The position numbers and the translations under genes are program-made. From Antedon mediterranea (lineage: Eukaryota > Animalia > Echinodermata), in assembly GCF_964355755.1 (NCBI RefSeq), contig NC_092680.1:18113045-18177044 (forward strand): a stretch of 64,000 nt of DNA. The letters run 5' to 3'. Of the stretch, positions 12,851 through 63,319 are shown in pieces. How positions within the stretch are numbered: the first letter of the stretch is position 1; each line of letters starts with the position of its first letter. Under the pieces are notes generated by a model. It saw nothing but the letters and a program-made list of their open reading frames with translations. It searched no databases and was not told the DNA's origin.

Positions 12851-12973
12851 CTATTTTACGGCTGCTACATGTTGGGCCCATGTACCCATTGGCGCATTTG
12901 CAGACGCTGGTATTCTCTGTAGTAACACAAGTACCACCATTCAAGCAACCACCGCAATCATCTTGAATATCAG
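12851..12973 (-). CDS. Exon E, unit 1: EGF-like domain
   Basis: ADIQDDCGGCLNGGTCVTTENTSVCKCANGYMGPTCSSRKI, six-Cys EGF pattern; acceptor TTACAG, donor AG|GTAGGC; 123 nt, phase 1-1. Confidence 0.9.
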
Positions 12974-13292
12974 CTGTAATAAAAAAAATTAGTAATGGTA
13001 TATTTAGTAAAAATAAGATTTTAGACTTGTGTCTAAAATGAATAATGGGAACTTTATGTTTACGACCTACCACCGACTAACCTAGGTCAGGTCAATCGAT
13101 GTGTCGTCGGTCGTCGTCTGGACTGGACATAAGAACAAACGTGTGTCGAGGTGAGAAGCGAGGAAATGCGTCCCATACGCAGTTCAGTCGTCACAAATCA
13201 AACGCTACGATATTATATATACTTAGGTCCATGATTATACTCTAAATTGTTAGACCACGAAAATAATAGTCTTAGTCCATAGTTAAACCTAC

Positions 13293-13553
13293 CTGTGAAT
13301 GGGCCTATATAAAAGCCTGAATATGGATAACTAATTTGAGTAATACTGCTCTCCAATGATTGATTTTCAGTTCTTGTATTAACTCTATATATGCCATCAG
13401 TCAAAGATTCTGTCCAGTAGATATAGGGGCCATATATTTCAACATCAATGCAGTAAATACCGTCCAGATCAACAGTTGTTGCTCTGTTGGTTCCATCAAG
13501 GTTAGCTTCTTCAATGACATTAGTTCCTGAATCACACCAATACATCTTTCCAT
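13293..13553 (-). CDS. Exon D, unit 1: YWTD propeller blades (MYWCD, IYWTE)
   Basis: DGKMYWCDSGTNVIEEANLDGTNR...IYWTE; acceptor TTTAAG, donor CAG|GTAGGT; 261 nt, phase 1-1. Confidence 0.92.
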
Positions 13554-13693
13554 CTTAAAGATAACAAAAATATATAAAAAAAATAATTAACAATGGGATG
13601 AACAAGGGGCCCGGATGCAGTTTAATCCAATAATTCAGTATGTGACAGTTTTAATCTCTTTTTTTTTATCTCTAAACACACAAGGCTTTCATT

Positions 13694-15798
13694 GGTCACA
13701 GTGCATTTCGGCCGCCAATCATTTCGGCCGCCGGTTATGGAACGACCAAATTCATGAAACTCCAAAAAGGACAAAATATGGCATGATCATTTCGGCCGCC
13801 AGGTATGGCGCGCCAAATTGAAATAGCCAGAAATAACTGCACAGTATTACAGTGAAAAAAATAACTTTACCAAGTCTATAGAACGCCACAGAGAACTATG
13901 GTCATTTAAACCAGAGATCAGTTGTGCAATGACCTAAATACATTTTTTTTGCCGTAGATTTAAAGTTATATTATTTTAACGTCTGAATATTTTGGTCAAA
14001 ATGAATATTGATTAAATGTTTATTTTTTTTATATTACAGGTCCCGAAAATGCGTGTGCTTTGTAAAAATGTGTTTCATTATGAATATAATAAATGTAAAA
14101 CCATGGAGAATTGGTAAAACATACGAATAAAAGTGTTTTTGACTGGCACATAAAAAAACTTCAGCATCACCTCCTTCTTATTAAAGAAAATGATAGCTTT
14201 GCGATATAAGGGAAGTTTCATTTATAATTTCCAAACAAAATGCCCTAGGATGAGTTTTACAAGGCTCATTAAACATTAGTGCCTTGGGTACACACACATG
14301 ATCTTTGAAAACGCTGGTAACGATACCGTACATATCTGAGGTGATTTTTCTTTGTCATTGTCGGACGCATTTCGTCATAAAATATTTGTTTAAAAAAACA
14401 AAGGCGGGCTAAAGATCCGACGCTAAACAGTTATGCGCTAAACAAGTAGGCGTATCTTTTTTTATAATGTGGTCTTCTTTTGGCACACTTCATATTAAAT
14501 TCAATAAACATGCGATGACGCGCGATGCATTGTTTATTTTTTTTTCCAAATAATATCCAAGGAAGAGGGTTCGATCAATTACGCGGAGATTCTTTTTTTT
14601 CTCATTCAAATCAGATAATTATCGGATAAATGCGATAATTTTTAACCTTTGACATGAAGGAAAAATTGTTGCAATGTGATTGGGCACCTGGTTGTTTGGT
14701 AATGACCGATCATGCGCACTTTTATTGGTTGAAAAATTAACCGATATTTTTTGTTTTGGCTGCGGAAGCGGCCGTTTGCGCTGCACGCCTTGCCGCTAAA
14801 ACTACAAATTCCGGGATTCCCCCTTTTATGTAAATGGTGACGTTTTTTCTATATAAAATAAAAGCTATACATTTTAAAGTAAAACTGGTGTAGGGCTACG
14901 TATCAGTCGGCAATGAGATTGTTTTTAATGTATCGAAAAGCGGGCAATCCTGCTGGCGACAGCGTCCAACAGTTGGAATGTATAAGGCTTAGGTTAGGGA
15001 TAGTGTCTTACCGTAATCATTCACAACAGTTAGCTGATAGATACCAAGTATTTATAAGAGACACTAGTTTTAATGTTTTGATTTGTCCACTATATTCTAT
15101 ATCGTATGCGTATTGTACTTTTTTTATTTCTACATATTATTATTATCCATACCCCAAACGAGGCTCATAACCACAATATTTCCCATTTTTTCAATTGTAT
15201 TTTTTCATTATTTAAGCACTTGAGTTTACATGTACCCCAAACGTATTAAAAGTTACCGGTATCTGTTTGACAGCAAAAAGATTAGATTGATAGCTAGGCG
15301 CGGTACAGAAACAATGTCCTAAGTTGTTATCGATATAAATAATGAAGTATTAATACTGTTAAACATTTAAATAATACAATTTGCAAAATATAAAAAGGAA
15401 AACCCCAAAACCACTTTATTTTCAAAAAGCACACATACTTCTTGGCACCTGTGAAATAAATTGACAACAAAAATGTATTAGGTTTAATAAACATTCTTAC
15501 ATTATAAATGTAGAGTGCAACGTTTGCTGAAAATATCATTAATATATTCACTGTAGTGATGGCAATGTGCACGCCATAAATGTTTCTGGAATTGAAGACC
15601 GCCGATTCGGCTTAATAATACAGTATTAGTAAAATATTAACATTTTAACACACATGGCGTGTCATACATATTCAAGAATAATTACAAGTCTGGCGGCCGA
15701 AATGAACAATACATATTTTGTCCTTTTTGGCGTTTCATGAATTTGGCAATTCCATAACCGGCGGCCGAAATGACTGGCGGCCGAAATGATCAGACACC
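13694..15798. mobile_element. Non-autonomous DNA transposon, ~110-bp TIRs, 8(-9)-bp TSD (Merlin- or MULE-like), unit 1 only
   Basis: GG...CC termini; TIRs with repeated CATTTCGGCCGCC; TSD CTTTCATT at 13686-13693 and 15799-15806; empty sites at 38165-38172 and 63453-63460. Confidence 0.85.
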
Positions 15799-16261
15799 CT
15801 TTCATTGTGTTAAATTATAAAGACCAACACTATCGAGTTTAATTAACGCTCAGCCACAGGTGGAAATGTCAGGCATTTACGATATAAACAAACGTTGTCA
15901 AGATATGTTTTTTATAATAGTTATATTGTATTTGTTCGTTATCACTGATTTGTAATATATAAACAATAAAAATGAACTTCCACACATCCTACAAAAGCCG
16001 GGACTTGCATAGAAAGAATGCCATCTACAGTCTAGTCCCAGCCTGTCCGTAAATAGTCCAGGGGTTCTCAACAGGCCGGCCGGGCCAAATGCGGCTCGTT
16101 GGTGAATTTCATATGGCATGCAAAGAGATACTGCTAGGCCAGGGGTTCTCAACAGGCGGATCGCGGACCAAAATGCGACTCGTGGGTGCATATGGCATGC
16201 AAAGAGATACTGCTAAAAAGTTTACTCCTTAGCGGCATGCCTACCGTAAGAAGGTCTTTAA

Positions 16262-17870
16262 AGGGGGGTTCCAGGTTTAAAATGAATAGTAAAAAATGTA
16301 AAATATATTTGTTTGTCTCTTGAACGGTAAAAGTTTCAATTTATATAAGCGCCCAGTGAAGCAGAACGAAGGCTGTGAAATGAGGCCAGATTACAAGTGC
16401 AGCTACGGCAAAATCACACTGTGGTTACAGAATAGGAAATTCGTGAAATGGTCAATCTTCTGACGACTCGTTATCATTAACCATATCAATTACTTTTGTA
16501 AAATTATACTTATCTGATGTAATTTTAGTCGGTCTTCCCATTTATAAAGTCAATTTTCTATGAAAATCCATCAAAACAGTGAAAAATTAGATAAGTTTGC
16601 ACTTTACGTTTGCCGATTTTCGCAAAGCCTTCAAAATCAATGAAGCGTAACGTATACATTCCTGCTGAGCGAGGAGAGCGAGACGACGATACACGTGCTC
16701 TCTCTGCCCATGCCTGGCATCGTTACGTGATAAGCAGATACAGTATACAGTATACAATACCAAACTGGTCGGGTCGAGTATACCCCATCTATAATCACAA
16801 CATGAACGATGTACAGTATTTGATTGAAGGTCGACTCAACCTACCGGAATGGTATAGATAATATCTGCTCGAATGAGAGAGTTGGAATATTTGTAAACAT
16901 AAGTACAGTATTGCTAATTTTAACAAGTGTAGCCTAAGTAAAAGGCCTGGTAGTATCAATTCGCATAGGGTCTACTACACTAGCTAGCTCAATTTTTAAC
17001 TGGGCCGGATCGGCTAGGCTAGGCTAGGTCTCCTTCCTACTACCGGTCTACTTGCTTGATGCAGTATCCGCTTTTTTGGAGAGTAAACCAGGCCTACTTA
17101 TTAGACGATCGGGACACCATACGTGCGGACGGCGATCGGACCTTGTTTTGCCTCAATATTTACAGCCGATTTTTGTAGAACGTTTTAGGTTTAGGAGTTT
17201 GGTTGATAGGATGGGTTTGGAATCCACTGAGTTTTGTTATTTATGGGCCAATCGTTTAGTAATAGGCTAGCTAGGCCCATGAATGATGGCCCCAATGTTT
17301 TAACGTAGCCATCGTGGCATGGAATCCCTAGTCAGAAATGGCTCTCACCCCGGCATGAATAAAATGATTTAGGCTAGGCCTAGCCTAGTACGTGAAGCCG
17401 ATATACGATCTGTACTATTAATTCGAGGTATAAAAATAGTATAATTTATGACTCCGTAATCTGTACTAAATTTTGTATTTCATTAGGCCTAAATGTCAAA
17501 TAAATATATGCTACTACTGTTATTATTACACTTTAGGCCTAGCTTAGCAAATCTACAAAAAATGTATTTCACAATGATCGGGTGGTCGTCGTTTGACAGA
17601 GAGAGAACACAACGTACAAGCTTGACGTCGCGAGTTTGGAATCCACTGATGACGTGATTTTGTGAATATCTCATGAATATTAATGAGCTTCTCTAAGCTG
17701 CTGAAAAACAGATTTTCCATAAATTTACCCTAAAATGTATATGAAATTTAATTTTTTTAATTTCTCGTTATTACTTCTTCATTCTGACATGTCTACAGTA
17801 TATTGTTATAATATTTTTTATTTAATAAATAAACGATATTTAAAAGCAATTTTAAACCCAGAATCCCCCT
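16262..17870. mobile_element. Non-autonomous Kolobok-like DNA transposon
   Basis: TTAA on both sides; TIR AGGGGGGTTCCAGGTTTAAAAT vs AGGGGGATTCTGGGTTTAAAAT; purine-purine termini; no ORF. Confidence 0.8.
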
Positions 17871-18177
17871 TTAAATATTAGCAGCAACCGGAACCGGCAC
17901 ATCAACCGTCTAGTTCTATTTTTCAAATGTTCTTAGCTCAGCCCAGCCCCAATCATGGTGGGACTGGTCGGTCCTGGAAACAAAGTGCCATTTCCCGTTT
18001 CTTTTATCTTTGTAGGCCTACTCCATGACCCAAAGCCCTTGTTACATGGCTGTTCCAGCATATAATATCTGGCCCGCGGCGACATTTGTAAATTGCAATA
18101 TGGCCCACGGTAGAAACTGTTGAGAACCTCAGACATAGGCTAATAACTAAAAAATAAAATATAAGTTGTATCTGAAC

Positions 18178-18305
18178 CGTTAACTGATAACACAAGCCCG
18201 TCTGGTGATGAAAGTTTTGTCACATTTAGTTCTTCTCTGGTACTCAAGTCATTCAGCTTCGCGCGCTCTATCTTGGCGTAAGAGTAATCAGCCCAGTACA
18301 GGTAT
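18178..18305 (-). CDS. Exon C, unit 1: YWTD blade (LYWAD)
   Basis: YLYWADYSYAKIERAKLNDLSTREELNVTKLSSPDGLVLSVN; acceptor TTTTATAG; weak donor G|GTTCAG gives the in-frame join VN-D-GKMYW; 128 nt, phase 2-1. Confidence 0.88.
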
Positions 18306-18657
18306 CTATAAAATAAAGCATAATGATTTCTCGTATTTATAACGTCCGTGTGTACAGATTTATAATACAACTATTACAACCGGAACAGACACAAATATTT
18401 AATTTCATTATTAATAAGAACACCAAAGGAAATTAATAAAATTAATCAAATCAATATTCAATTTTGATCTACGTCATTTAAAAAAAATTATTTTGTTAAA
18501 AGGGTAATGTGAAAAAGCCCTGCATAGAGCAGAGATAGATTGATTTGCATACGGTAAGTAAACCGCTCAGTAGGTGATTCATTTGTAGACGTTTATAATG
18601 AGAACCCACCTAAGCAAGATTTGAACCCGGTTTCTTCTGATTAGATAAGCTACATAC

Positions 18658-18811
18658 CCGTTAACAGTATCTATCGCAAAACCGACTAATAATGTATTAA
18701 AAAGAACTGTTCTGCCTGTTCCATTGAGATTTATTACTTCGATTCGGTCTTCTGTGTCATCCGTCCAATAGAGTTTATTTCCAATTACATCAACGGCAAT
18801 ACCAGTGACAT
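18658..18811 (-). CDS. Exon B, unit 1: YWTD blade (LYWTD)
   Basis: [51 protein letters not shown], read manually (not in the ORF track); donor GG|GTATGT; 154 nt, phase 1-2. Confidence 0.9.
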
Positions 18812-19009
18812 CTTAATTAATGAGAAATATCATTTTTATATTATTGTTTTGGGTTAACATTACCTTGAAACATTACCTCATACAGCCTCATAATATGTAT
18901 TAGGCCTAACTTATATTTTAATTCTTGTCAAGTTCTTCTTCACGGCTGTCAATAGTACATTCTACTTGATAATTAATTGAACATAAAAAGAATAATGTCT
19001 TGTTCTTAC

Positions 19010-19260
19010 ATCTAACTCCAGTAGAAACCAAAAGATCGTGCTGATTATTGGCAAATGAATATGATTCAATGGCATCTCCTCTAGTAGAAGAAGACCAGTA
19101 TAACGTTAATGTGTTGGGATTATAATCAAGAGCCGTAATACCGCCTGGTGTTGGTGACACTGTCTGCGGCAATGCTTCCACAAGTTTAAAGTTGTGTTTG
19201 TCAGACTGATGTTTGAATAATAAATGGTATCTTCACCACCTACGAACACAATATCACGTC
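19010..19260 (-). pseudogene. Exon A, unit 1: propeller N-terminal strand and first blade (LYWSS), with a 1-bp frameshift
   Basis: 251 nt, not frame-preserving; CACAAGTTT at 19179-19187 vs CACAAAGTTT in unit 2; the shifted frame reaches TAA inside the exon. Confidence 0.8.
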
Positions 19261-20259
19261 CTGTAAGATAATAACGTTACATCGAATACAATAACTTAAA
19301 TAATACAAATACAATAACTTAATACCAGTACGTTCTAATAAATGAAACACGAATACAGAATTGTTGTAAAAAAACGTTTTTGTTACCTCTGTGCATCCGA
19401 CAGACAGCGTAACACAAACTACAAATTATAATTATAGTTAATATCTAGGCCTAATTTGTTAGGTAAAAACGAAAGCTCCCTCTATAGTGTAAAACATCCT
19501 AATTCTATAACAACAAACCTAATTTCTGAAAACACTGTCAAGTAAACTTTACTTTCAGAAAATAATATATTACAATATTAATAGAAGACATATAGTTTAT
19601 TATTATTAATTAATTTTTTTGTAAGAATTATGGAAATTAGAGAGAGCTAACCGTACCTTTATGCATACCGTAACATAGTTATATTGCGAAGGTAACCTGT
19701 TAAGTACATGTAGATGTACACTGTAATATATATTTTTGTTAAAATTATTGTGTAGTTTAATAGTCAGTTTGTATGATACATGATTATATTTAACCGTATT
19801 TATATTTTTTTTTTCTAAAAACGCATAATTATATTAAGGTCATGTCTTGAAGTCGATACTTACCATAAACGAATCCTATGCGTAACGTCACTAGACACAT
19901 TGCAAACAATAGAGATGTCATCATGTTACTTCTATATACAAGAACAACAAATCTGTTATCAAGGATTCATGACAACTTAATTATATCTTGTTGTTAGTTT
20001 ACTGTACATGTCAAACGAAAACTATGCATAATAATATTAATAATAAATATTGTGTTATAATACCATAAATTCTGTGCTTCAAGCTATTTTACATGGATAC
20101 AATTTATCGAAAACGTTGATCAAATAAATGTAATTATTGCATGAATTGCTTTCATTGTAGGCATATATTTATCAGCAGTCAAAAAAGAACATGAGCGATG
20201 GAGCGCGCCCTCTATTGACTTCTGCTAAATCAGACTTATATGACGAGTAAAAAAAATTT

Positions 20260-21156
20260 CGCATCCCGGCAGGAGTTAATAAGCGTATAAGTCAATTATC
20301 AAGCGACGAAGAAACATTCGAAAACACCAAGCAACTATACAGCGAAGCACTTCGAACAAGCGGACACAAAGATAACTTACTCTACACCCACCACTCCGCA
20401 TCCGGTATAAGAAGAAACAGAGGGAGAAACATAATATGGTCCAACCCACCATTCAGTACGAACATTAAGACAAATGTCGCACGAACCTTTTTACAATTAA
20501 TTAAAAAACATTTTCCCAATGGACACGTATTACATAAAATATTTAATAAGAACAATGAGTAAGCTATAGTTGTATGCCATGTGTAAAAAATGTAATTAAC
20601 AAGCATAACCACAATGTACTGAACCCCCATACAGAACGAGAAAGTGCGTGCAATTGCCGCAACAAACCCAATTCCCCCTAAATGGTTCATGCCTCGCATC
20701 TGAAATTGTCTACTCCACCGACGTCATAACCAATAACGAAACTAAGACATATATTGGTATGACGGGTGGGCAGTTTAAAACTAGGTTTAACAATCACGAG
20801 AAATCTTTCAAAAAAGAAACGTACAGTAAAGAATCCGAGCTCTCAAAGTACGTATGGTCTTTGAAAAGTAATGTTTATTAAATGGTAAGTAATTAAATAT
20901 TCCTCCACTAAGAATGCCGATTATAGGCGTTGTAGTCTTTGTCTAGATGAAAAGCTATGTATTCTAAATGCAAACAAAACAAATTTGCTAAACAAAAGGT
21001 CTGAACTGATTTCAAAATGTCGTCATAGCAAGAAAATGTACATACCACCTGACTAAAGCCTTATAACACCTTGAGATACGGTATTTTTCAGTCTATCTGA
21101 AGATCGTTTAACGTGAAACACCGTGCAATAGACGCCCGTGTTCTATATAATTCATA
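20260..21156 (+). mobile_element. Penelope-like retroelement 3' fragment (RT thumb to GIY-YIG), possibly Naiad-type; copy at ~43359-44261
   Basis: RNIIW.NPPFS, KVSYSCMP, CNCR, YIGMT..FKTRFNNH, NKRSELISKCRH across frameshifts; ends in a hammerhead-like motif and (TA)n. Confidence 0.85.
21091..21133 (+). ncRNA. Type I hammerhead-like motif at the PLE 3' end (copy at 44196-44238)
   Basis: GTCTAT-CTGAAGA-short stem II-GAAA-CAC/GTG-CA-ATAGAC; 6-bp stem I; C at the position normally U16.1, so possibly inactive. Confidence 0.6.
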
Positions 21157-21209
21157 AATATATATATATATATATATAAATCAATGATGTTGCGTAGCAC
21201 TGTGTAAAT

Positions 21210-22880
<1,671 letters not shown>

Positions 22881-22995
22881 CTTAAACAAATCAGGCAAAG
22901 AACATTAATTCTAAACCGCCCGGTAATATACTGAAATTTAATTAATTAATTCGAAACGATAAAGATGAGGAAATCTGTGAGAATGAGAAAAAGTC

Positions 22996-23060
22996 GCCCC
23001 AACCGAGACTCGGACCGCCTGCTTGATATGCAGATGTCCTAACCATTAGACCACTGGGGC
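22996..23060 (-). mobile_element. tRNA-like (Glu/Asp-like) module with oligo-T terminator; copy at ~47028-47097
   Basis: GCCCCAGTGGTCTAATGGTTAGGACATCTGC...GGTTGGGGC followed by TTTTT; A box intact, T arm eroded. Confidence 0.55.
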
Positions 23061-23473
23061 TTTCATGGTATTGTTCGAACTTGATTGGATAGCGACTCTT
23101 TAACATTCTCGGCGTGGTACGGCGGAACAGCACTAGTCCTCAGTTGTACGGACGCGCACCAGAGATCAAATTGATACGCCCTCATCTTACAGTATTTTTA
23201 TTCACGAGGCGGGATCTCCGAAGAGATACTTTTATATATATAAACAAATCAGGCAAAGAACATTAATTCTAAACCGCCCGGTAATATACTGAAATTTAAT
23301 TAATTAATTCGAAACGATAAAGATGAGGAAATCTGTGAGAATGAGAAAAAGTATATATATATATATATGTTCATTGCCTAATGTGTTTATATATATATAT
23401 ATTGTGAGGGTGTTTTATTTGTTGTATGAGAGAATGTATCTGGTGGGTGAAAATCTGTGATAACACCATATAT

Positions 23474-23545
23474 GGCTCTGTAGGCTAGTGGTATGATACT
23501 CGCTCTGTAAGCGAAAGATCGCAGGTTGAAATACCGCCAGAGACA
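23474..23545 (+). mobile_element. tRNA-Pro-derived head of a (TA)n-bounded repeat (copies ~27719, ~47448, ~51708, and both palindrome arms)
   Basis: GGCTCTGT.G.CTAGTGGTATGATACTCGC...GCGA.AG resembles tRNA-Pro; followed by a T-run and a conserved body. Confidence 0.65.
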
Positions 23546-24434
23546 TTTTTTCAACATTTGTTTACAACTAAAAATACGGAAGTTTCGGCGATGAGCTATG
23601 CTCGACGCGATTATGAGATCATGGTCCGAATATGAGCACTGTTTTAATAATTTGACAGTATGATTTATTTGATCTCTGGTGCGCGTGCGTACCATTTGAG
23701 GGAATAGTGCTGAAATCTGTGAAAATAAGAAAAAGTTGTTTCAACCGAGATTCGAACCCGGCATTAAAAACTTATTTTGTGTTAAAAACCTTCTGAAGGT
23801 CACCGAATATCACCAAACACACTGATTGTTCACACTATATTAGTCACAAATTCACTGATACTTATCCGATATTTTTCTGGAAAAGTCAAATTTGTTCAAA
23901 GTTTAATAATCTTTACAGCAATATAAATATTAATAACTAAATGCTACGTATTTTTTTCCGGAAGTTTGATTCCAGTCGTGAAAACAGTAACATCGATTAA
24001 ATTACCATGCTATGATAAATACAAATTCCTCTAAAACCAAAACCGCCAAGCTTAATTTATTCTGTAAATAATGTCTAAAGGTGCGTTTGATTGGTTCTTT
24101 TTACGGACTAATCACATTTGTGAAGTCTCCTATCGTTACGTACAGAATAGCCATGATAATTCGGGTATATTTATTGTCCAAAAACAGACGATCAATGATA
24201 CAAATAGCTAAAAGACTGAAACCGTAACCTTTTACATAAAAAAGTTTAAAATTTATAAGAAAATATCCTATATGTAAAAAAAAAAATGTATAAAATGTAT
24301 AGACAATTAAATATAAGGAAAGAAAACGACATTAATACGAAGTAAAGGACATAAAAAAAGTCTAAGGTGTATAATTAAAGAGTCTGATTAGGGCTGGAAT
24401 AGCTGACTTTCAGCGTCTCTCAGTACGACAAAAG

Positions 24435-49802: not shown

Positions 49803-52800
49803 TGCTTGGTGTAACATGTACTGTACTATTTCAATCGACTATGATTCTCTTCTTATTCAGCAAGATGTTGTTAGGCTTTGCAATTGGTCTGACACATGGA
49901 AAATGTTCTTAAATCCGCTTAAGTGTCAGATTCTTACTTTATCACTTAAAAAACAAATTATTAATTTTGATTACACTATTAACGGACTTTCTCTTTGATA
50001 GGGTTAACTTGAAGAATCTTGGCATTTATATTGATTCGAAACTTATCTTTAACAAACATGTTGATCATATTATTTTTTCCATGGAATGTTAGGTATGCTT
50101 AGGCGTCACTGTAAACACATCGCTAGTGACCACAACAATCCAGGTCCTTTAATTCATCTTCCTCCGCTTCATACTGGGAGAAGCTTCTTTGATTTGGTAT
50201 TTCTTTTTAAATGCTTCAACTCCCTTTTTAAATGCAATATTTTATCATTTTTTCCCCCTTGCCCGTTGTCGAGTCAACGTAACCAAAATTGGTTTCATTC
50301 AAAGATTATCCAAGCTTTTTAATTCAATTTCTATTAAAGATAAGACTATCGATATTCTTTTTGACACTTTGTCCAAATTTAAGTCTAAAGTTCTTAAATC
50401 GATTTAAGTTTGCCTTTCTGTTTGTTTCAAGTTTTGTATTTTAATGTGCTTTTAATTCTATATTTACATCTTAAGAGTTTTACGGCATCCTGTATTTGGC
50501 GATTTTTCGCTGTTGGATGTGGTTGAAATAAAATAAAATGAAATAAAATGACAGTGACAGTTTTAGCAAAGTATTAATTTGCAAATGTTTTACTCTATTT
50601 AGTGGTATATTATTTATAGGCCTTTAAAACATGAAAATAAATTTCGTTACTGATAAAGAATATATCTAAAAATTGTTCCTCTTGGTACCCATCCTCTTCC
50701 CCATCCCTCAACCTTAATGTTATATACAAAACACAAATTGGGTTTGTTTAAATGAGTCAAAATCAAAAACAAGGCCAACAGCCATAAGTCGCGTGCTAAA
50801 ACGCATAGTGATACAGACCGACAGACCGACAGACCGACCGACCGACCGACATAGCGAACTATAGAATCGCGTCCACGCGATTAAAAAGGTAATTCCCAGG
50901 GTGCTAAATATGAGTTGACTACATAAATCATCGTGTCTATTTATTCGTTTCTGTAAACGACAATATATTATAGTCCTGCGGTACGTAAATTTAAAAAACG
51001 CTGAAATTACTGTGTATTCGAGAACCATCTGTGTGCACGACCTAGATGGTAAGCGATGCATCTATTATGTTTTAATCCTCGTTATTGTTCTTTACTTAGG
51101 ACAATTCTTCCTATTCACACGTCACCAAGATTAAGGTAGATTATACATTACTGACTTTAATAAATTAATATTATTTAACGTACTCACAGATTAAATCTTC
51201 TTACTTTTATTGAATTTAACTCTATCTCACTAAAGTTAATTATGTTAAATATTGTTGAAATAAATAAATAAATAAATATAAATGTTATAAATATTATCTT
51301 CAAAATGGAAAGATGTAGGCCTAATGGTGTGATAAAAGGAATGGGTATCATTGAGGAAGCTAACCCTAAAGGAACCAACAGGAAAGGCATTTATAATTTG
51401 CATGGAAAATCTCTGTTGACAAAATAAAATCAGATCATTTAGAAATAATACAAGCTGAAAATAATAAAAATGCTGTGGGCATCGGTGGCTGGATCTCAAT
51501 GGAAATACACAATAAAATCAAAAAGATAGATTAAAACGATAAAGTAAAACAGCCAGACAAAATTAGTAGAGCTTTCGGGCAACACTAGCCCTTCATCAGT
51601 GCAAGTGAGAGTATATATATATATTGTGAGGGTGTTTTATTTGTTGTATGAGAGAATGTATCTGGTGGGTGAAAATCGTTGAAAATCTGTGATAATACAC
51701 CAGATATGGCTCTGTGGTCTAGTGGTATGATACTCGCCCTGTAAGCGAAAGGTCACAGGTTGAAATCCCGCCAGAGAAATTTTTCATCGATGTGCTATAC
51801 TCGACGCGATTATGAGATCATGGTCCGAATATGAGCACTGTTTCAATAATTTGATAATATGATTTATTTGATCTTTAGTGCGCGTGCGTACAATTGCGGG
51901 AATAGTGCTGAAATCTGTGAAAATAAGTCGCTTCAACCGAGATTCGAACCCGGCATTACAAACTTATTTTTGTGCTAAAATCGTTCTGAAGGTCACCGAA
52001 AAACAACAAAAACACTGATTGTTCACACTATATTGGTCACAACTTCGCTGATACTTATCCGATATTTTTCTGGAAAAGTCAAATTTGTTCAAAGTTTAAT
52101 AATCTTTACAGCAATATAAATATTAATAACTAAATGCTATAGACGTATTTTTTTTCAGTTTGATTTCACTCGTGAAAACAGTAACATCGGTGAAATTACC
52201 CTTTTTAACAATTTCACCAATGGTAAGGTCAAAATATTTCCATCACCTGCAGTTTCCCTCACAAGAATCATTAATGAGGATGAGAAAGAGCACAGGCCTC
52301 AACCTCGTACGTTGTGGTACCCACAAGTAATTTGGCGTGTAGATGATATATTAGTGCCAATTTTGGAATTAATAACTCTATTAGAAAGGAAACCGCAGAC
52401 GATGGGTATGATTGACGGTCTAACACCAAATGTAAATCTTATTAATTAAAACGATGTGCAAAATTGCACTGATAATAAAATGTATTACTTAATACTTACC
52501 CAGATTCCAAATTCGATTCGAATTCGCTTACCGACCAATTTACCTACACTGAATGAGACTCGCCTTTATTGAAGTAAATTTGATTGTTATTATTTGGGTT
52601 TAATTAATTTGAATTATTATATATAAAGATTGTTTTATAAAACTTTCGATAAACCAATTATTGCTACGTTTCGACTATTTTCAATAGCCTTGGTCACGCA
52701 AATGACTATTATAATCCTGGTTATTATGTTCTTTACTTAGGACAATTCTTCTTATGCCCTATTTTTTTTTAAATCCGGTTGAACAGGTCGATTTTCTTTA

Positions 52801-54005
52801 AATAAAATAATATTTTGATGGATTTAAATAAACTGTATTACTGTGAGTGTGAATAGGCCTTACTGTTAGATATATAAACACATAATATACAAATAAACTT
52901 TATTACTGACAGTTGCTTCTCAACGTTTGTATTAATTAATAATTACCAAAAAAAATTCAAACGTCGTCGTGGTGTATACGTGTACTTTGCTATTTCAATC
53001 GACTATGACAGTGACAGTTTTAGCAAAGTATTAAATCGCAAATGTTTTACTGTATTTTAATACTGGTATATTATTTATAGGCCTATAAAACACGAAAACA
53101 TATTTCGTTACTGAGTGAATAAAGAATATTTACAAATTGTTCATCTTTGTACCCATCCTCTTCCCAATCCCTCAACCCTAATGTTATGTATTTGTTTAAA
53201 TGAGTCCAAATCAAAAAGTTATCTTTCTCTTTCAGAAGTAATTCACAGGGTGCTAATTTTAGTTGACTACATAAATCATCGTGTCTATTTATTCGTTTCT
53301 GTAAACAACAATGTATTATAGTCCTGAGGTACGTAAATTAAAAAAAACCGCTAAAATTATTGTGTATTCGAGAACCATCTGTGGGCACGACCTAGATGTT
53401 ACGCGAGCGAAGCGATCCTCCTTAGGACAATTCTTCTTATGCCCACCAAGATTAAGGTAGATTATACATTACTGTTAATAAATTAATATTATTTAGCGTA
53501 CTCACAGATTAAATTTTCTTCCTTTTATTGAATTGAACTCTATCCCACAAAAGTTAATTATGTTAAATATTGTTGAAATAAATTAATAAATAAATATAAA
53601 TGTTATAAATATTATCTTCAAAATGGAAAGATGTATAGGTGTGGTAAAAGGTACGGGTATCATTGAGAAACCAACAGGACAAGCATTTATAATATGCATG
53701 GAAAATTAGTTTTCTCCACAACAAAATGTGATGTGCTCATATACGGACATGACGATGTCATGTCACTACCATATTTGTGCATATCACTACCATATTTGAG
53801 GAACAACACACCTTTTTTATCAAACTGTTTGATAGTGTAAACAGAGCTTTATGATGTTGCATTAATATATGAAAACTATCTGTACTGGACAGATGACGAT
53901 AAAATGACTGGAATACATCAATGCAGAAGCGGCTTATAATACTATAGCTCTTTCACACGTAACATTATAAAGTATTATAAAGCTTAATATAATATATTAT
54001 ATTAA

Positions 54006-56560
54006 CTAGATGGCACGCTCGCTTCGCTCGCGTACCATCTAGGGGTGCCCACAGATGGTTCTCGAATACAGTAGAATCCACGGACGGGGACTTTTTTGGG
54101 ACACTAAACAAAAACGGAAGTGTCCCCCTAATTGGGGTATTCAGAAATAGAGACAACAAAACCAATACTGGATTCCATAAAAGACAATTAATTTATGTGG
54201 ATTAAAGAAATTAGGGAGAAATGGAAATGTATGTACGGGAATTGGGCGGCACGTGGTGGTGGTGATGGAACCGCAGTAATAAAGTTGATTGTATTTATAT
54301 ATTATAAGAACCAAACTAAATAAATAGACCTAGACATTCTGCGAAATGGAAATCGGAAATTCAAGCTCCTATTCAGTGAAAAATTAAACTGTAGTCTACC
54401 TAAATATTTAGGGCAAATCATCGGTTGTGGTGTTGAAATTCCTGTAAACATTTGTGTGAACCAAACTGGGTCGAATTTCTGTCATGAGTACTGATTTGTT
54501 GGCCTGTGATTTATGACGCCTAAGGGATCTATCTAGACTTATTTTTTAGAATAATGTACGTACCTGTCAGATACAATTGTCTTGTGTCGTATAATAAATA
54601 AGTACTGTAATAGTTACTGAAGTTACTATTACAATCTCGTCAATGAAAACACGAAAATGTATATGCACTTACTTATGAAAACGTATACAGTATTATACTC
54701 AGTTATTGAAACAGTAGGTTTAAAAAAGTTTCGTTTGTCTGTAAAATGATGTAATCAAGCTGTTTACATGAGTCTTAATTTATAAGCACATCAATAATAA
54801 AATAGTTTATCTATCCTGTAATTGGCGAGATTATGGTCGCTGTTGAATGAAATAAAGCCAATCGGTATCATATTTGTACAGAAAAGTTTTTGCGGCCGAA
54901 GGGTGTAACCTAAATTCGTTGTATTATCGTCAAGAACTAACTGTAAGTAAACTTACATAGAAAGTAGGGTATCATAAATTTGGCCTTAGCACTCGGGGGA
55001 GTGGCTAAGATGAAGTCCGTGGGACTACTAAATATAAATTGTAATGAACCTCGAGGGACATAAATAGGAATATTTCATGTTTCATTATCAATGTATAATA
55101 AATGGAAACTGTTTACCGATTCAAATAATAGAAATTGGTTTTTAACATTTTCCGAACCTATTGCAAGTTTATTCTCAAAGGGCCCATATATTTACCTACC
55201 GTATGTGTTAAACCAAGGGCTCATAAATTTACCTACAGTACTTGTGTTAAACCAAACTCTGGCAGACTGAGAGATTGGGATGTTCCATTCATCGCAAATC
55301 AATACATTTGTATAATCGTATATTAAATCTATCAAAATAGTTTTTTTTAAAGAAAATCGGCCTGTCTTCAACATTATGATGGTGTACTCTAGCAATCTAT
55401 CAAAATTGTATTTTTTAAAGAAAATCGGCCTGTCTTCAACATTATGATGGTGTACTCTAGCTGTTAAACCGGTTTTCAGCTATTAAAAACAATTATCGTA
55501 GGAGGAGATAGGAAAATGCGAAGCCTCCTCGCTATGTAACATTAGGGTTGAGGGATGGGAAAGCGGATAGGTACAAAAAGGAACAATTTTAAAATATATT
55601 CTTTATCCACTGAGTAACGAAATATTTTGTTCATGTTTTATAGGCCTATAAATAATATACCTCTAAATACAGTAGGCCTAAAACATTTGCGATTTAATAC
55701 TTTGTTAAAACTGTCACTGTCATAATCGTTTGAAATATTAAAGTACATGTCACGATACACCACTACGACGTTTATATTTTTGGTAATTATTAATTAATAT
55801 AAACGTTGAGAAGGAACTGTCAGTATAAAGTTTATTTGTATATCTAACAGTAGAGCCTATCCACATTCTCAGTAATAAAGTTTATATTTTTATATTACAT
55901 CTAACAGTACGAACATTCACAGTAAGAAATGTTCGATTCAAATGAAAAATAGTTAATAGGTATTTACAGTATTGTCAAAGTATTGCAAGTTTATTCTCAA
56001 AGGGCCCATATATTTACCTACCGTATGTGTTAAACCAAGGGCTCATAAATTTACCTACAGTACTTGTGTTAAACCAAACTCTGGCAGACTGAGAGATTGG
56101 GATGTTCCATTCATCGCAAATCAATACATTTGTATAATCGTATATTAAATCTATCAAAATAGTATTTTTTAAAGAAAATCGGCCTGTCTTCAACATTATG
56201 ATGGTGTACTCTAGCTGTTCAACCGGTTTTCAGCTATTAAAAACAATTATCGTAGGAGGAGATAGAAAAATGCGAAGCCTCCTCGCATTTTTTTGGCGGG
56301 TATTTTTCAAGATGGACATCCATTAGACAGTGTATACCACGATCGGAAAACACCCCTATTTGGGGCAAATCGTTGAACCTAAATTCGTTTTAATCGTCAA
56401 TAACTAATTATCTAACTCAATTTAATTAGTAAACAGGGTTACATCAGGCGGTTAAAATCAGTACCGAAAGTACGAACCAACTTTACATACCATCGAGTGA
56501 AAATTCTAGAAGTAAGGCGCGATTTACCGAATTTTGCCCTTACGTAAATTTATATATAGA
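54006..56560 (-). mobile_element. Non-autonomous Helitron, unit 2 only
   Basis: Minus strand A|TC...GC-rich hairpin...CTAG|T, no TSD; empty A|T site near 31274; internal duplication 55160-55530 / 55981-56286; plus-strand relics of the family near 27040-27083, 51010-51060 and 52830-53415. Confidence 0.85.
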
Positions 56561-56565
56561 TATAA

Positions 56566-56629
<64 letters not shown>

Positions 56630-59064
56630 CCAAAGGCAAATAACTGAAAAAATGACAATCCTGTGGCTGGATCTCAATGGAGATACAAAAAAGTGAAAAG
56701 CTAAATCAAAACGATAAAGTAGGCCTAAAAACAGCCAGAAAAGTTAGCAGAGCTTTCAGGCAACATTAGCCGTTCATCATATATAATTTCTTTGGGGTAA
56801 ATTATGATTTAATAATTATAAAACCAAGGACGCTTTATTTTACTGATATTATTCAAAACTTCAGATAAAACTTCATAAAAGTCTATTTTCAATAAGCTTT
56901 CGCATAGAACGTCATTGCACAATGCATGATGGGAAGGGTTTAGGAGCAAGCGCCACCTTTTAATAAAAACGTTATATCTGGTGGTGGCGCTATTGCTTCC
57001 CATCACGCTATTTGCGATAAACCCATAGAATTGTAATAAGTTTCGGGTATATAATATCATTGGATAAATCTTGTCTTTATTTACCACATCGTTTTTATTT
57101 TTTCAGTTGTTGGATAAACAATATTCAAGGAAAATGTTTATATATCCTTACAGTTAATGTGTTTTTAATAAAGTTATTAGTTTGGTTAATTAATGATGAT
57201 ACGTAACAAAAATGTTTCTAAAATTTGTTTTTTTTTTATCAAAGTAAGACCTTTTCAAGATAAGGGCTAAGCTTATACAACGCTCTATTAAGACATACTG
57301 TAAGCTTAAAGCTTCAGACTATTATACCACCACGGAATAATAATCCATGTCCCTGCTTCATATCTTATATACAGTAGTCTAGAATATATGCATAATTAAA
57401 TTAGTGTAGGCCTAGTATAGTATAGTACAATCTTAACATAAAGTATAGCTTACAAAGGTTGTGTCTACTTAGAAAAGCTTTCTTCCTTCAATATACAGCA
57501 TAGCCTACTATCAACAAAAGAAAATAGCAAAAGGCCAACACACCTGGCTGAACATATGCAAATAAACACAATAAAAGCGAAACAAGTGGCGTACTGCAGA
57601 TATAGTAGGCCTATATCTATAGTATGTCAACCGAAAAGTTTGAACTTCACAACATTAAATATTTGGAACAATTTTGTCTCCAACACAACGTTTTTTTTTT
57701 CTTATACTTTAAAAATTATGTGTCAATATTGTGCAAAGAAACCAGAACAAGGAAGTGGAATCATTTTATTTGTATATACTTTTGACTCTATACTACTACT
57801 GTAGTATACCAGAAATACTGTACTGTTTATTGTATATTAATTATTTCGGATAATTATAAAAAGAAACACTTTTTTTTAAACGTTTCTTATAAAAAATGTC
57901 GGTGCAAGTAGGCCCATATATTGTAGCTTCATTTTGAACACTTTTAGAAATCCACGTAAGAAGATTGACCCAAGTCCACATTTTGCATAACCTTCTCAGG
58001 ATCTATGGAATTAGATGATACTCTGATACTGAATGTAAAACCTTAACAAATGAGAAGAAATGTATAAAGTGTTATCTTGTTTAGGGAGCTGACTGAGATT
58101 TTTTACTTTTAACCAGATCCTAACAAAAAAGAAAGAAATTGTTACGTTAAAATGACAATAATGTTTATGTATAACTAGGCCCTATATTTGTTTTTTTCTT
58201 GGTTAAATAACTATTACAAATAGCCATTAAAACAAAATTGTCTTTAGTGCAACGAGAAAGCATTTATAATATTTGACGTAATATAATTATCATTGATATG
58301 TTAATTCATAATTTTGTAGTAAATTCTAGTCCAATACACAAAGCCATGATAAAATAAAAGTGTGGTTATTAAAATGTGTATTTATCGTAATCAATATGTT
58401 CCAATAGTTGATTTCAATTCCATTCAATTCAAAAGACATTTATTTTCCTCTATTTTAGTTCCATTCTTACGGAGTTTATTCAATCCGCGACACAGTGGCC
58501 CGTTTCAGCCTTAAAAATCTGCTCAGCTAACCCAACAACTCGGCTACCATTCGGGTTTCCACCTGATTTAAACAAATCTTTTATGGTTATCATCAGTTCT
58601 TTCAATGTAGGCCTTATGTAATTTTTATTCGATTTCTGACATTAATTTTTTATATACTGATTTTACAATTTTCCTTCGATGATTCATGAATATATTTGAT
58701 TTGATCGTTATTATTTTTAGTGTACTTTAATGTTGCTAACTTCAAGCGTGGCCTATGAAAAGGTCAAAATATGAATATCGCCGCCAACGGCAAAGGTTGG
58801 GGCAACAAACCCCCGGAAGTCACAGTGATTACATCTTCCGCAGCCGCACAGACGGTTGAAAATCTACCTATATGAAATCAGCAATTTTTTTTTATAACCA
58901 TTATAATATATTTCTAATAAAGAAATATGGAACAATATCATATTGGTGGACACTATAATGTTACTCAATCTACGTTTTGCAGAACATGTGAGACAGAGGA
59001 TAGGATAGATATCCAAGGAGGAGATCCGCACAAAAGGGTTGTGTGTTTTAGGTTATTTCCGAAT

Positions 59065-60489
59065 TAAGCATAAATAGGTTATATGCATTATCATGCATAT
59101 AACCTATTGATTCTGTATATTTATTCTTTCCTTAGCACTATTTTGTCCGTCAATTATCTTGATATCAGTTTCATCTAGCTAAGTCAATTTTTCAGAGTAT
59201 ATTCCTTATGGCCAGGAATCTATGTGGTTATGTTTTGACGATCTATGCGCGATTTAACGAAATCACGTTTGTAATCATATCTTCACAATCATGAATCACT
59301 TTTAAACAAAATTTGGTACTCATAAATTTCAGGTCATATTTCATCATATGGCAATATAATTACGTGCGTAGCGCATATAACGCATGCGTACGCGCGCTTA
59401 AAATTTTCAAAATTATCACAATTTATTTTCGATGAAATTAGAGCAATTTTAAGCGTTTAAAAAATTGCCATGAGTGCGCAGATTTTTGCACGCGCACTGC
59501 GCGTTATACGTTAATGCGTACTTTTTTTGTCCGATTTCTGTTGTACAACTTTTCTTTAATAATATCATCATATTTTATTCACTTTTTAAGGCGAAATTGC
59601 GTTATACGAGCACGTCAAAAGTGACAGGCTACGCATGTGTAAGTTAATAAAATGGTGAAAATATGCTAAATTTTAAAATTAATATAGATCGTCAGAATGC
59701 TCGGGAACGCCTATTTTTTATTTCATTTTCTTGAAGTGTATGTATCTTATGTATGATTTATTATTAAATTAAGAGAACAAAAATTGATTAAGTCATAATT
59801 AATTGCATATTAATTTTTTTTTAATTAATTTCGACAATCAAACAAATTATGACATTTTCTTAGGCCAAAATAACAAACTTAACATTAACTTTCTTCCTTC
59901 AAAAGTTCATATATTAAAGTTAAAAGTATATAGTTTGAAAGTGCATCATTTTTTTACATTTTTAGAGATGTCATCATAGTAAAAAATTATAATTCATTGC
60001 GGTATGTAATAATCTCTCTGCACCAAAGTGGTTACTGCATAGTAAATACATGGAGGAATTTTTCTACAACTTTTTATCAGTTGTGTGTGGCTCGGTGGTC
60101 TGTGCTCGTGTCTATGGCATTCAAGGTACCGAGATCGAGTAAGATTTTTTTATATTATCCGTATTGTTTGTTAAAATTTATTTCTTAGTGTATAAATAGA
60201 TATACATGATTTATAATGAAATCTAGATAAAAAGTAACGTATGTCTTTATTATTATGTAATATAATATATTATAACAAATGTGGTTTATGACATTATACG
60301 CAGAGGGATCTTTGATCGGATTGTGATACCGGCTATTGTATTCGCGTTAGCAATGTCCTATCATATATTATAAATAATTAAAGATTCTGAGAAAATCAAT
60401 CAATAAAAATACCTTTTAAAAATCAATTATCTTGATTTAAATCAATGCATATAACCTATAACTCGTCATAGTGACGAATTAAATCTAGT
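59065..60489 (+). mobile_element. Complete HINE/Helentron-type non-autonomous element
   Basis: Subterminal IR ATAGGTTATATGCATT / AATGCATATAACCTAT, extra IR beside the 5' subTIR, 3' hairpin TCGTCA-TAG-TGACGA, CTAGT end; absent from unit 1 (~10612). Confidence 0.8.
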
Positions 60490-61530
60490 TTATATATAGA
60501 TACTGTATGAACTTTTCGTTTCTTTTAATTTGTAATTTCACCAACAACTCATATATTTCCTGTGATTCTTCAGCTCTGTCTAATCAAACTGTAGGTCTAT
60601 GTTACAAAAAAATGTGATTTGCCCATATATGGATAATGATGATGTCATATCACTACCACATTTCTGTTGTTAAACTAGTTTGATAGACAGAGCTTTATTT
60701 GTATATCTTTGATGACATTGTTTCATTTTTTGTTTTCTCCTAAGGGAGGTGAATACACGTACTAAACGTAACTAATTTCAGCTTGTTCATACTTAATAAA
60801 TCCAGACAAATATTGTTCGGAACCAACAAATATCGGTGGGTGTCTTTGAAATATAAATTCGAGGTTCATAATAAACAGTACAACATTTAGATTTAAATCA
60901 AATAATATTAGGCCTACTTTATTCATCTTTTAACCATATTTTCTCTGATAGTAATCAAAATATAGGCCTACATACATTAAAGATGAAAATGGTCCATAAA
61001 CCCGCAAGGGCTTATAAGATGTGGAAACCATAATAGTAGGTCTAAATGAAGTAAGTACATAAAGTGACACAGTAAGCAAAATTAAAACGATTTAGCGGTA
61101 ATACATAATAATATATAATACATGTTTAGTAAATCATAATAACTAAAAGTTAATACATATTTCGTTAAAAAAAAGATGTTAACAATACTATATTATTTCT
61201 ACTACATTTTAATTTATAATAAAATTGGTACAGAGTCTGAATTAGTATCTAGATCACCGGTGAATAATATTATGCGGCCAGTTATTGATTTAAACAAAGT
61301 TAAAATGCGAAGGCTTGGTGATATGCTTCCTTCTTGTGGTAAATGAATGGTAAATGAATGGCGAACTGTACTCTGTAAAGAAGTCACACTCGCTTCGGCC
61401 TCCGAACGATTAGTGACGTGTGGGTATATAAAACACATTAGATGATGTCAGTGGGGTTTTATCGCGGGACATGGTTCTTGACCTCGTCTCGGGGTAATGG
61501 TATCGAGATCGCCGAGGGCTATATACTGAA

Positions 61531-61583
61531 CTATGCTCCAGTCGAAATGTATATAATATGCATTAAAGAAGAAGAATGCATGT
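61531..61583 (-). CDS. Candidate terminal exon F, unit 3
   Basis: (D)MHSSSLMHIIYISTGA*. Confidence 0.3.
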
Positions 61584-62618
61584 CTGTGTACATTATAATG
61601 AAAGAAAAATAATATAAATAAGTTAAAGATTTTGGCATCATAAATTTTAGATTCTTGAGCCAAACGTACCAGCAGGCCTACTCATAATATATTCATTACA
61701 TTTTCATTATCCGTGTTTTTTTGCTCAGAAAAAAACGTCCCCTTTTTTAGTAAACCAAGTATAAACAGGTTAAAACAAAATATAAACAGGTTAAAATCAA
61801 ATATAAACAGGTTAAAACCAAATATAAGAAGATTAAAATCAATATAAACAGGTTAAAACCAAATATAAACAGGTTAAAACCAAATATAAACAGGTTCCGA
61901 ATTATGACATTAGGTTAATAATAATAATATACATAATCTGCAAGCATGACTAATACAATAAATCAAAACCAATTACGAAAGGATATATAAACATTTTCTC
62001 AACCATGTGTTTTTTCTAAATGATGAACGAGTTATGGCGAACACCCACAGTATACATTAACTGAAAGAAAAAAATAATGTTTTAGGAACTGCATCTTGGA
62101 GTTGTGGCTTGCTGGTTATGATGCTTGGCTACCAATCCAAGGCTACTGGGTTCCTTTCCTATAGTTTTTCTAATTTCTAATGACAAACTACAACTCTACT
62201 ACAAGACTTGTAATAAGACTTTTTTTATGTAGAGCATCATATGTTTGTCTTGTTGTGAACGGTGATTGCCACATTTAAGAAGAGTGAATGAATTCGCTTT
62301 TGGTTATACTTGGCAATTTGCCAATATTATATAAAAAAAAAACAAACAAAAGTAAAAAACAGTTTTTATATTTTACCGTTTAATATAAATGTAGTCAAGA
62401 TACAGAACCTTGTACAGTATATCATAATTTTACACTTGTTTGTGGTTTGTCAATACATTTTGCAATCAAACAATACAAAATACATGCATGAAGTAATTTT
62501 ACTTTGTGTTCTTTGAAATTATGCTCTGTCGTGATACGGCGTTTAAAAAGAATGGTGACGAATAAAAACGAATTTAGGCACACTGAATAGAATAATATTT
62601 TTTTAAGTATAGGCCTAC

Positions 62619-62741
62619 CTATTTTACGGCTGCTACATGTTGGGCCCATGTACCCATTGGCGCATTTGCAGACGCTAGTATTCTCTGTCGTAACACAAGT
62701 ACCACCATTCAAGCAACCACCGCAATCATCTTGAATATCAG
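62619..62741 (-). CDS. Exon E, unit 3: EGF-like domain
   Basis: Peptide identical to unit 1; 123 nt, phase 1-1. Confidence 0.9.
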
Positions 62742-63058
62742 CTGTAATAAAAAAAATTAGTAATGGTATATTTAGTAAAAATAAGATTTTAGACTTGTGT
62801 CTAAAATGAATAAGGGGAACTTTATGTTTACGACCTACCACCGACTAACCTAGGTCAGGTCAATCGATGTGTCGTCGGTCGTCGTCTGGACTGGACCTAA
62901 GAACAAACGTGTGTCGAGGTGAGAAGCGAGGAAATCCGTCCCATACGCAGTTCAGTCGTCGCAAATCAAACGCTACGATATTATATACTTAGGTCCATGA
63001 TTATACTCTGAATTGTTAGACCACGAAAATAATAGTCTTAGTCCATAGTTAAACCTAC

Positions 63059-63319
63059 CTGTGAATGGGCCTATATAAAAGCCTGAATATGGATAACTAA
63101 ATTGAGTAATACTGCTCTCCAATGATTGATTTTCAGTTCTTGTATTAACTCTATATATGCCATCAGTCACCGTTTCTGTCCAGTAGATATAGGGGCCATA
63201 TATTTCAACATCAATGCAGTAATGACCGTCCAGATCAGCAATTGTTGCTCTGTTGGTTCCATCAAGGTTAGCTTCTTCAATGACATCAGTTACTGAATCA
63301 CACCAATACATCTTTCCAT
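63059..63319 (-). CDS. Exon D, unit 3: YWTD blades
   Basis: MYWCDSVTDVIEEANLDGTNR...IYWTETV; 261 nt. Confidence 0.92.

Follow-up and report, generated by a model that had tools for sequence, protein, structure and literature searches.

Can the copies of a tandemly duplicated gene diverge at one protein surface while the DNA around them is kept alike? The question is raised by a 64,000-nucleotide stretch of the genome of the feather star Antedon mediterranea (contig NC_092680.1, positions 18,113,045 to 18,177,044; hereafter the window). It carries repeated units that encode YWTD propellers, in which, according to the original prediction, exons diverge faster than introns at the predicted ligand-binding face, the units forming a candidate variable receptor repertoire. 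The analysis reported here points to a tandem cluster of secreted YWTD-EGF recognition proteins whose copies differ on that face, likely directed against microbes, parasites or their products; this reading as a whole has about an even chance of being right.

Self-comparison of the window reveals a tandem segmental duplication with a period of about 23-25 kilobases (kb), running from 10066 to about 63700. It holds three tandem gene copies on the minus strand: genes 1 and 2, both complete, and gene 3, which is partial (Table 1). Exons A to D of each unit encode one six-bladed YWTD propeller, and exon E an EGF domain; all five have GT-AG ends and consistent phases. Two further exons extend the feature beyond the bounds first proposed, down to 12270: exon S, found in both complete units by a scan for an ATG, a hydrophobic stretch and a phase-1 donor; and the terminal exon F, which encodes Tyr-Cys-x-Cys-x-Pro and a stop in all three units. 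Gene 2 is an open frame of 334 amino acids in seven exons, S and A to F. Because each unit has its own signal-peptide exon and its own stop-bearing exon, the units are almost certainly separate genes for predicted secreted proteins, not parts of one LRP-like receptor. The idea of a membrane receptor therefore falls away, the products lacking an anchor.

The predicted product consists of a signal peptide, one YWTD propeller, one EGF domain and a Cys-x-Cys tail. Pfam Ldl_recept_b and EGF match the exons of the window. The AlphaFold model of the A. mediterranea homologue P0005 (mean predicted local distance difference test score 86.9) has 24 propeller strands, and its best fold matches are LRP4 beta-1 and LRP6 E1 (E about 1e-22). 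LDLa repeats, which A. mediterranea LRP4 has, are found neither in the gene 2 model nor in a Pfam scan of the homologue P0159. Gene 2 also has no transmembrane segment (its best 19-residue hydropathy after the signal is 1.48, versus 2.5-3.0 in membrane-bound kin), and the stop lies 8-9 codons past the EGF exon, leaving no cytoplasmic tail. The N-terminal signal suggests that the products are secreted. (Two other endings were considered and rejected: a glycosylphosphatidylinositol-anchor-like hydrophobic tail at about 11719, 36160 and 61583, where the nearer Cys-x-Cys exon matches the homologue tails; and an EGF exon that continues into hydrophobic sequence, where gene 2 shifts frame.)

The contrast that first drew attention to the locus is real. 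Between genes 1 and 2, exon D differs at 27 of 261 nucleotides, with 19 of its 86 codons changing amino acid and three purely synonymous (4 synonymous and 23 nonsynonymous differences by Nei-Gojobori counting), while the D-E intron differs at 5 of 317 aligned nucleotides plus one 2-nucleotide indel. These counts match the original ones, and every motif contrast quoted after a YWTD motif or before the next blade is present. (In exon C, part of the 22 ungapped differences is better read as two 3-nucleotide indels.) The D-E intron is nevertheless a poor yardstick of divergence, because it appears to be a gene-conversion tract: genes 2 and 3 differ there at 2 of 311 positions versus 30 of 476 in the E-F intron (p = 2e-5). 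Everywhere else in the 3' half of the unit, gene 2 is the outgroup. The intron is not a constrained element, since a contig of another organism label shows 35 differences from it over 342 letters. Along the whole unit, non-coding DNA diverges unevenly between genes 1 and 2, in mosaic fashion: 1.1% upstream and in the S-A intron, 2.8% in A-B, 4.1% in B-C, 5.3% at the start of C-D, 1.6% in D-E, 5.3% in E-F and 3.5-7.4% downstream. Between genes 1 and 3 the divergence stays near 1.5% all along. In the three gene pairs, exon D diverges 6.4, 10.7 and 2.4 times as much as the D-E intron, and 1.95, 1.09 and 2.7 times as much as the E-F intron. Intron-limited conversion, which had been named as a potential undoing of the contrast, thus holds in part: the D-E intron appears to have been homogenised, and exon D synonymous divergence (4 of 62 sites, 6.5%) matches the 5% of the older background. 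The locus shows that intron conversion can exaggerate an exon-versus-intron contrast.

Where, then, do the changes fall? The top face of a YWTD propeller is built from its 2-3 and 4-1 loops. Loop classes were set by transferring strand boundaries from the P0005 model, and the top-face assignment was cross-checked with LRP4 contact residues placed by alignment (PMC10266037). Variable positions make up 23 of 61 in the top loops, none of 50 in the bottom loops and 18 of 146 in the strands, eight of these in strand 1 (top versus bottom, p = 1e-7), and none of 256 circular shifts of the loop mask reaches 23. The clustering at the predicted ligand-binding face thus exceeds chance. Hot spots recur once per blade, across four exons, and the bottom loops are invariant.

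The background for judging this is the older non-coding DNA of the locus, which differs at 4.7% when pooled (100/2144) and at no more than about 9% in bins of more than 100 bases; a 41-base bin beside exon C (7/41) is an exception to this ceiling. Nonsynonymous divergence in the top loops is 24%, or 21% without eight indel-ambiguous codons. Counting codons rather than nucleotides blunts the effect of multi-nucleotide changes. Changed top-loop codons number 20 of 56 between genes 1 and 2 (p = 3e-7 to 3e-4) and 8 of 20 between genes 2 and 3 (p = 0.003 to 0.009), both at a 4.7-7.5% background, and 6 of 20 between genes 1 and 3 (p = 4e-5 to 3e-4 at 1.5-2.2%). Even with the highest background, each of the three pairs stays above what neutrality predicts (p = 0.009 or lower). 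A structure-blind site test (purpose-written code, star tree) favours model M2a over M1a, with a likelihood ratio test (LRT) statistic of 19.5 for 330 codons and 11.0 for the 322 that are not indel-ambiguous (p = 0.004 to 6e-5). It assigns omega, the ratio of nonsynonymous (dN) to synonymous (dS) divergence, a value of 11-14 on 8% of codons; six of the seven sites above 0.8 lie in top loops.

The ligand pocket tells the same story. In LRP4 and LRP6 from fish, bird, amphioxus and echinoderms, eight pocket columns hardly vary across the first two propellers; the LRP6 E2 pocket residues are described in PMC7585440. Seven of the eight columns differ between genes 1 and 2, versus 44 of 264 positions overall (p = 1.6e-5), bearing out the contrast drawn with the normally conserved LRPs. 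In gene 2 numbering, the pocket codons at issue are 149, 166-168, 191-194, 209-210, 233-236, 250-251 and 272-275. The LRP4 contacts R862, W904 and N906 (PMC10266037) align to three of the variable columns. The conserved pocket of R-W-W-N-H type has been lost: gene 2 keeps four of the eight consensus residues, and gene 1 none. Site tests, loop counts and pocket columns agree, and diversifying selection on the predicted ligand-binding face, as originally proposed, is very probable.

Several observations weigh against this conclusion. The whole gene has a dN of 0.083, a dS of 0.072 and a maximum-likelihood omega of 1.0, and no test of dN/dS by exon or whole gene is significant (exon D alone: p = 0.17 by Fisher's test, 0.45 by LRT). 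The claim that exons diverge faster than introns consequently stands for about 8% of codons, not for whole exons. Even on the top face, dN does not significantly exceed dS (0.276 versus 0.144; p = 0.08 by Fisher's test, 0.20 by LRT), and top-loop dS is itself raised, at 9-13%. Patchwork conversion or multi-nucleotide mutation may account for this rise. Part of the diversity may thus stem from short conversion tracts, or from old divergence that was preserved, and not from new substitutions; both routes would still require selection to give a once-per-blade pattern. Among distant Antedon paralogues the top loops are also the most variable positions (68% versus 39-41%), so low constraint contributes. 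The top-face classes were set after the alignment had been seen, although the AlphaFold classes and the pocket columns derive from independent data. Moreover, the evidence comes from two complete sequences and one partial sequence with recombination, and site tests are inflated by recombination and by multi-nucleotide changes. Finally, gene 1 may be a null allele.

Are these genes expressed, and do other samples bear on them? Run X5, from another sample and study than the window, was guessed to be RNA, a guess supported by intron-skipping joints. One contig of 1088 nucleotides spans exons A to D through the A-B and B-C joints, and its loose end at C-D reads gene-2-type exon D. A single contig covers exon F, and position 36636 as well, at depth 19.3, equal to that of the spliced contig, and is probably the same one; in it the TAG stop at 36692 reads TAA. 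The exon F stop remains a stop in all three runs that cover it. The S-A joint is covered by none of the X5 contigs listed. In sample S1 (runs X1 and X3), a gene-1-like contig over 19079-19264 carries the base missing near 19184, and the contigs have neither the frameshift, nor the 9-nucleotide deletion, nor two substitutions of gene 1. S1 therefore does not carry the haplotype of the window, and the frameshift may be either an assembly error or a null allele. The blade-3 top loop shows further substitutions in X1 and X3 and compensating indels in X6, among the 40 of 179 matches listed. Loose ends of X5 at 18699, 18751, 18754, 19094 and 19134, again among the matches listed, point to more transcripts of the propeller family, one of them with roughly fivefold the contig depth of the gene 2 type.

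The best eukaryotic matches are A. mediterranea proteins, of which eight related ones were found. With three copies in the window, the term repertoire is not supported as written. The nearest in plan, P0159 (333 amino acids), has the same signal peptide, propeller, EGF domain and Cys-x-Cys tail; P0005 is its shorter isoform and is 57% identical to gene 2. The kin include single-propeller proteins (XP_071944200, XP_071957857, XP_071953244, XP_071959053) and longer ones (XP_071944650, XP_071952596, XP_071950857). Six aligned kin are 43-57% identical to gene 2, and three share the EGF domain and a Cys-x-Cys-x-x-Pro tail. They carry automatic names only ("LRP5/6-like" or "uncharacterized"), and no functional study of them was found. 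Protein searches, crowded by LRP4, LRP6, LRP2 and bacterial repeats, added one family member, P0342.

In a tree of 41 rows (quick method, midpoint root; gene 3 and four divergent LRP6 fourth propellers left out), nine rows, made up of the window genes and seven A. mediterranea proteins, group in a single clade with support 100, apart from all 24 LRP4 and LRP6 propellers; orthology to any of these propellers does not appear in this tree. A second tree places the same crinoid clade apart from LRP1 and mollusc proteins. The classical pocket persists in the three longer kin, two of which also have a membrane segment and Tyr-x-x-Ile/Val motifs; its consensus has been lost in the short ones. Brittle star and sea star proteins (P0295, P0304, P0243) have three to four lineage-specific propellers outside LRP4/6, so that other echinoderm classes would seem to have YWTD offshoots of their own. 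Another possible tandem expansion comes from the fish Acnodon oligacanthus, where five YWTD proteins of some 800 amino acids are encoded side by side and are nearly identical (the P0372 cluster, locus tags 146900-146980).

The locus itself bears marks of both duplication and loss. Its small, clustered genes for predicted secreted proteins comprise three tandem genes, one of them frameshifted, and the spacers hold four decayed, inverted relics of exon D; relics and frameshifted copy fit birth-and-death turnover.

Table 1. Features of the Antedon mediterranea YWTD-EGF locus, in window coordinates
Feature	Position	Strand	Remark
Tandem segmental duplication	10066..63727	.	mosaic non-coding divergence, about 0.4-9% per bin
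Gene 2 exon S, ATG and predicted signal peptide	42974..43034	-	20 codons, phase-1 donor; no difference from gene 1; N-terminus of A. mediterranea P0159 is similar
Gene 2 exon A, strands 2-4 of blade 6 and blade 1	42129..42377	-	included in the spliced X5 contig
Gene 2 exon B, blade 2	41764..41926	-	X5 shows both joints, A-B and B-C
Gene 2 exon C, blade 3	41282..41409	-	C-D junction is the loose end in X5
Gene 2 exon D, blades 4 and 5 and strand 1 of blade 6	37748..38008	-	Pfam Ldl_recept_b
Gene 2 D-E intron, probable gene-conversion tract, gene-3-like	37431..37747	-	2/311 versus gene 3; next intron 30/476
Gene 2 exon E, EGF domain	37314..37430	-	Pfam EGF
Gene 2 exon F, terminal coding, Tyr-Cys-x-Cys-x-Pro-stop	36692..36717	-	tail motif also present in Antedon homologues
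Gene 1 exon S, predicted signal peptide	19864..19924	-	ATG-hydrophobic-donor scan
Gene 1 exon A, 1-nucleotide deletion in T run near 19184 (frameshift)	19010..19260	-	assembly error or null allele
Gene 1 exon B, 9-nucleotide in-frame deletion removing pocket Arg position	18658..18811	-	
Gene 1 exon C	18178..18305	-	
Gene 1 exon D	13293..13553	-	
Gene 1 exon E, EGF	12851..12973	-	
Gene 1 exon F, terminal coding, stop	12270..12298	-	
Gene 3 exon D	63059..63319	-	exons S-C would fall past window end
Gene 3 exon E, EGF	62619..62741	-	
Gene 3 exon F, terminal coding, stop	62032..62060	-	
Decayed inverted exon D relic	27331..27431	+	nhmmer E 1.7e-5
Decayed inverted exon D relic	30593..31180	+	interrupted by inserted repeats; YWTD motif kept at 31147
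Decayed inverted exon D relic	51294..51407	+	nhmmer E 7e-9
Decayed inverted exon D relic	53612..53900	+	interrupted by inserted repeat; YWTD motif at 53883

Other features of the genes and their surroundings were also noted. In all three copies of exon D, the Pro that usually precedes strand 1 of blade 5 is replaced by a Cys, a possible partner for the Cys in the YWCD motif of blade 4 (gene 2 residues 207 and 235); Antedon homologues have only the YWCD Cys. Predicted N-glycosylation varies by copy: gene 1 has an extra site at the rim of blade 3; blade 5 carries one in genes 1 and 3, in place of which gene 2 has a site in blade 4. Seven nucleotides before the ATG (43041 and 19931, minus strand) lies an AG acceptor-like site, which suggests a non-coding first exon upstream. 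No NF-kB-like site was found within 3 kb upstream of either S exon, by a crude pattern and with the position of the start site uncertain. A 21-base-pair tandem repeat occupies the region of the 3' untranslated sequence, with 12, 11 and 7 copies at 11886-12134, 36354-36583 and 61752-61896, and the spacers contain long TA-rich microsatellites (21567-21784 and 56551-56626) that are unlike between units. Immediately upstream of exon S lie decayed retroelement fragments duplicated with the unit (45336-44644, minus; 43403-44158, plus; counterpart near 20280-22960), which we take to be Penelope-like: one open reading frame matches GIY-YIG above cutoff, and two others have no Pfam match. A neighbouring gene starts at 3832-3700 (minus) with the N-terminus Met-Gly-Cys-x-Cys, presumably the myristoylation and palmitoylation pattern of Src-family kinases; its 44-residue piece has no Pfam match.

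How might such a locus have come about? The family would have arisen in crinoids from a single-propeller membrane receptor that still bears the classical LRP4/6 pocket, one branch becoming secreted with the loss of the membrane anchor. Unequal crossing-over and conversion would keep homogenising the repeat, and selection would fix or preserve new residues in the 2-3 and 4-1 loops. Binding would presumably be through the top pocket, against a moving biological target, and each copy would bind a different one. The two free cysteines of the tail could, at a guess, link chains into multivalent oligomers, in the manner of an agglutinin, opsonin or decoy.

The loops might simply be weakly constrained, with patchy conversion and the decay of gene 1 creating apparent hot spots and no adaptive diversification at all. 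Mosaic non-coding divergence, the D-E conversion tract, the whole-gene dN/dS, the gene 1 frameshift and the raised dS of the top loops all speak for such an account. Relaxed constraint, however, cannot exceed the neutral rate, which the top loops do (21-24% versus 4.7%, and at most about 9% per bin); nor would it place hot spots once per blade in four exons with no variable position in the bottom loops, and genes 2 and 3 show the same excess without gene 1. Neutral drift of this kind is improbable. That the gene models are wrong is less probable still. Exon E could be spliced to the next exon A to make one long LRP-like membrane receptor, since the exon E donor and the exon A acceptor are both in phase 1; against this stand the signal-peptide and stop-bearing exons of each unit, an RNA-like contig that, judging from equal depth, runs into exon F, and the failure to find a downstream transmembrane exon in the window. 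Haplotypes falsely assembled in tandem would suit a spacer much of which differs by only 1-2%, but the three exon D sequences all differ, which two alleles of a single locus cannot explain.

If secreted proteins are under selection, what do they bind? A non-self target, with an immune or decoy role, is favoured by analogy with the crinoid lectin OXYL and sea urchin SpTransformer, and because sexual-conflict loci are fewer than putative pathogen targets among the selected sea urchin genes reported from one scan (PMC5521101); such a role has roughly the same prospect of being right as of being wrong. The same genes and selection could instead concern sperm-egg recognition or egg adhesion, the product being a protein of gametes or of the egg coat that sexual conflict or reinforcement has diversified. 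The combination of secretion, positive selection and duplication also fits abalone and echinoderm fertilisation proteins (PMC9022041), and free cysteines could cross-link a coat; yet paralogues that coexist have diverged from each other, as have samples under a single organism label, the divergence not being confined to comparisons between species, and the sea urchin scan points the other way. A gamete role is unlikely, and no fertilisation protein appears among the named matches. Still less likely is a secreted effector in mucus, tube feet or skin that serves adhesion, prey capture, antifouling or defence against predators, or else a soluble protein that modulates an endogenous ligand; in either case the paralogues would have specialised on different targets. 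Exons that change fast beside conserved introns are a typical feature of venom-type gene families, the membrane kin keep the classical pocket, and YWTD domains occur among secreted anemone pedal-disc proteins (PMC6626399). Nevertheless, PDB, Pfam and fold searches returned no toxin likeness, and an endogenous ligand would not explain loss of the pocket and rapid turnover.

Returning to secreted proteins aimed at non-self, a wider reading can be entertained, tentatively and with more doubt than belief: that the feather-star YWTD scaffold serves a recognition system of membrane receptors with Tyr motifs and of turning-over, disulfide-linked secreted variants, comparable to SpTransformer or the C1q-domain-containing lectins, the pockets of the secreted variants being diversified by selection and gene conversion. 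Elsewhere YWTD propellers are known to dock Wnt inhibitors, agrin and laminin and to be highly conserved, and no description of a stand-alone YWTD propeller in such a recognition family was found in searches of open-access literature. The kind of system is already known; the scaffold is apparently new. A lineage of stand-alone secreted propellers diversified by selection at this pocket would add a new fold to the variable recognition molecules of invertebrates and give a first handle on crinoid immunity (or gamete recognition). It also makes a concrete prediction: copies that differ at about 20 top-face residues should bind different targets.

How do these genes compare with known systems? In MHC, abalone lysin and venom families, binding-site codons outpace neighbouring introns, and conversion homogenises non-coding DNA. 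The window genes differ from the MHC-like pattern in fold, and the evidence for them is three paralogues, not population samples. With the modules of LRP4 and LRP5/6 they share a six-bladed YWTD propeller followed by an EGF domain, and their variable sites fall on agrin- or sclerostin-binding positions of LRP4 and LRP6 (PMC10266037, PMC7585440). Unlike these receptors, they have a single propeller and are predicted to be secreted, with no LDLa repeats, membrane segment or cytoplasmic tail, and with a pocket both eroded and variable. The SpTransformer (Sp185/333) genes of sea urchins are likewise small, clustered echinoderm genes with segmental duplication and deletion and mostly nonsynonymous change (PMC8634487). 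Their sequence and fold are unrelated, however, and they have mosaic element diversity; their immune induction and microbe binding have been shown (PMC8634487), whereas an immune role of the window genes is putative. Closest in host are OXYL and the secreted C1q-domain lectins of crinoids, a secreted multigene recognition family which is reported to be confined to feather stars, and of which oligomeric OXYL agglutinates bacteria (PMC6409975). OXYL, in contrast, has a C1q fold, an intronless gene and a defined sugar ligand, whereas the window gene is a seven-exon YWTD gene.

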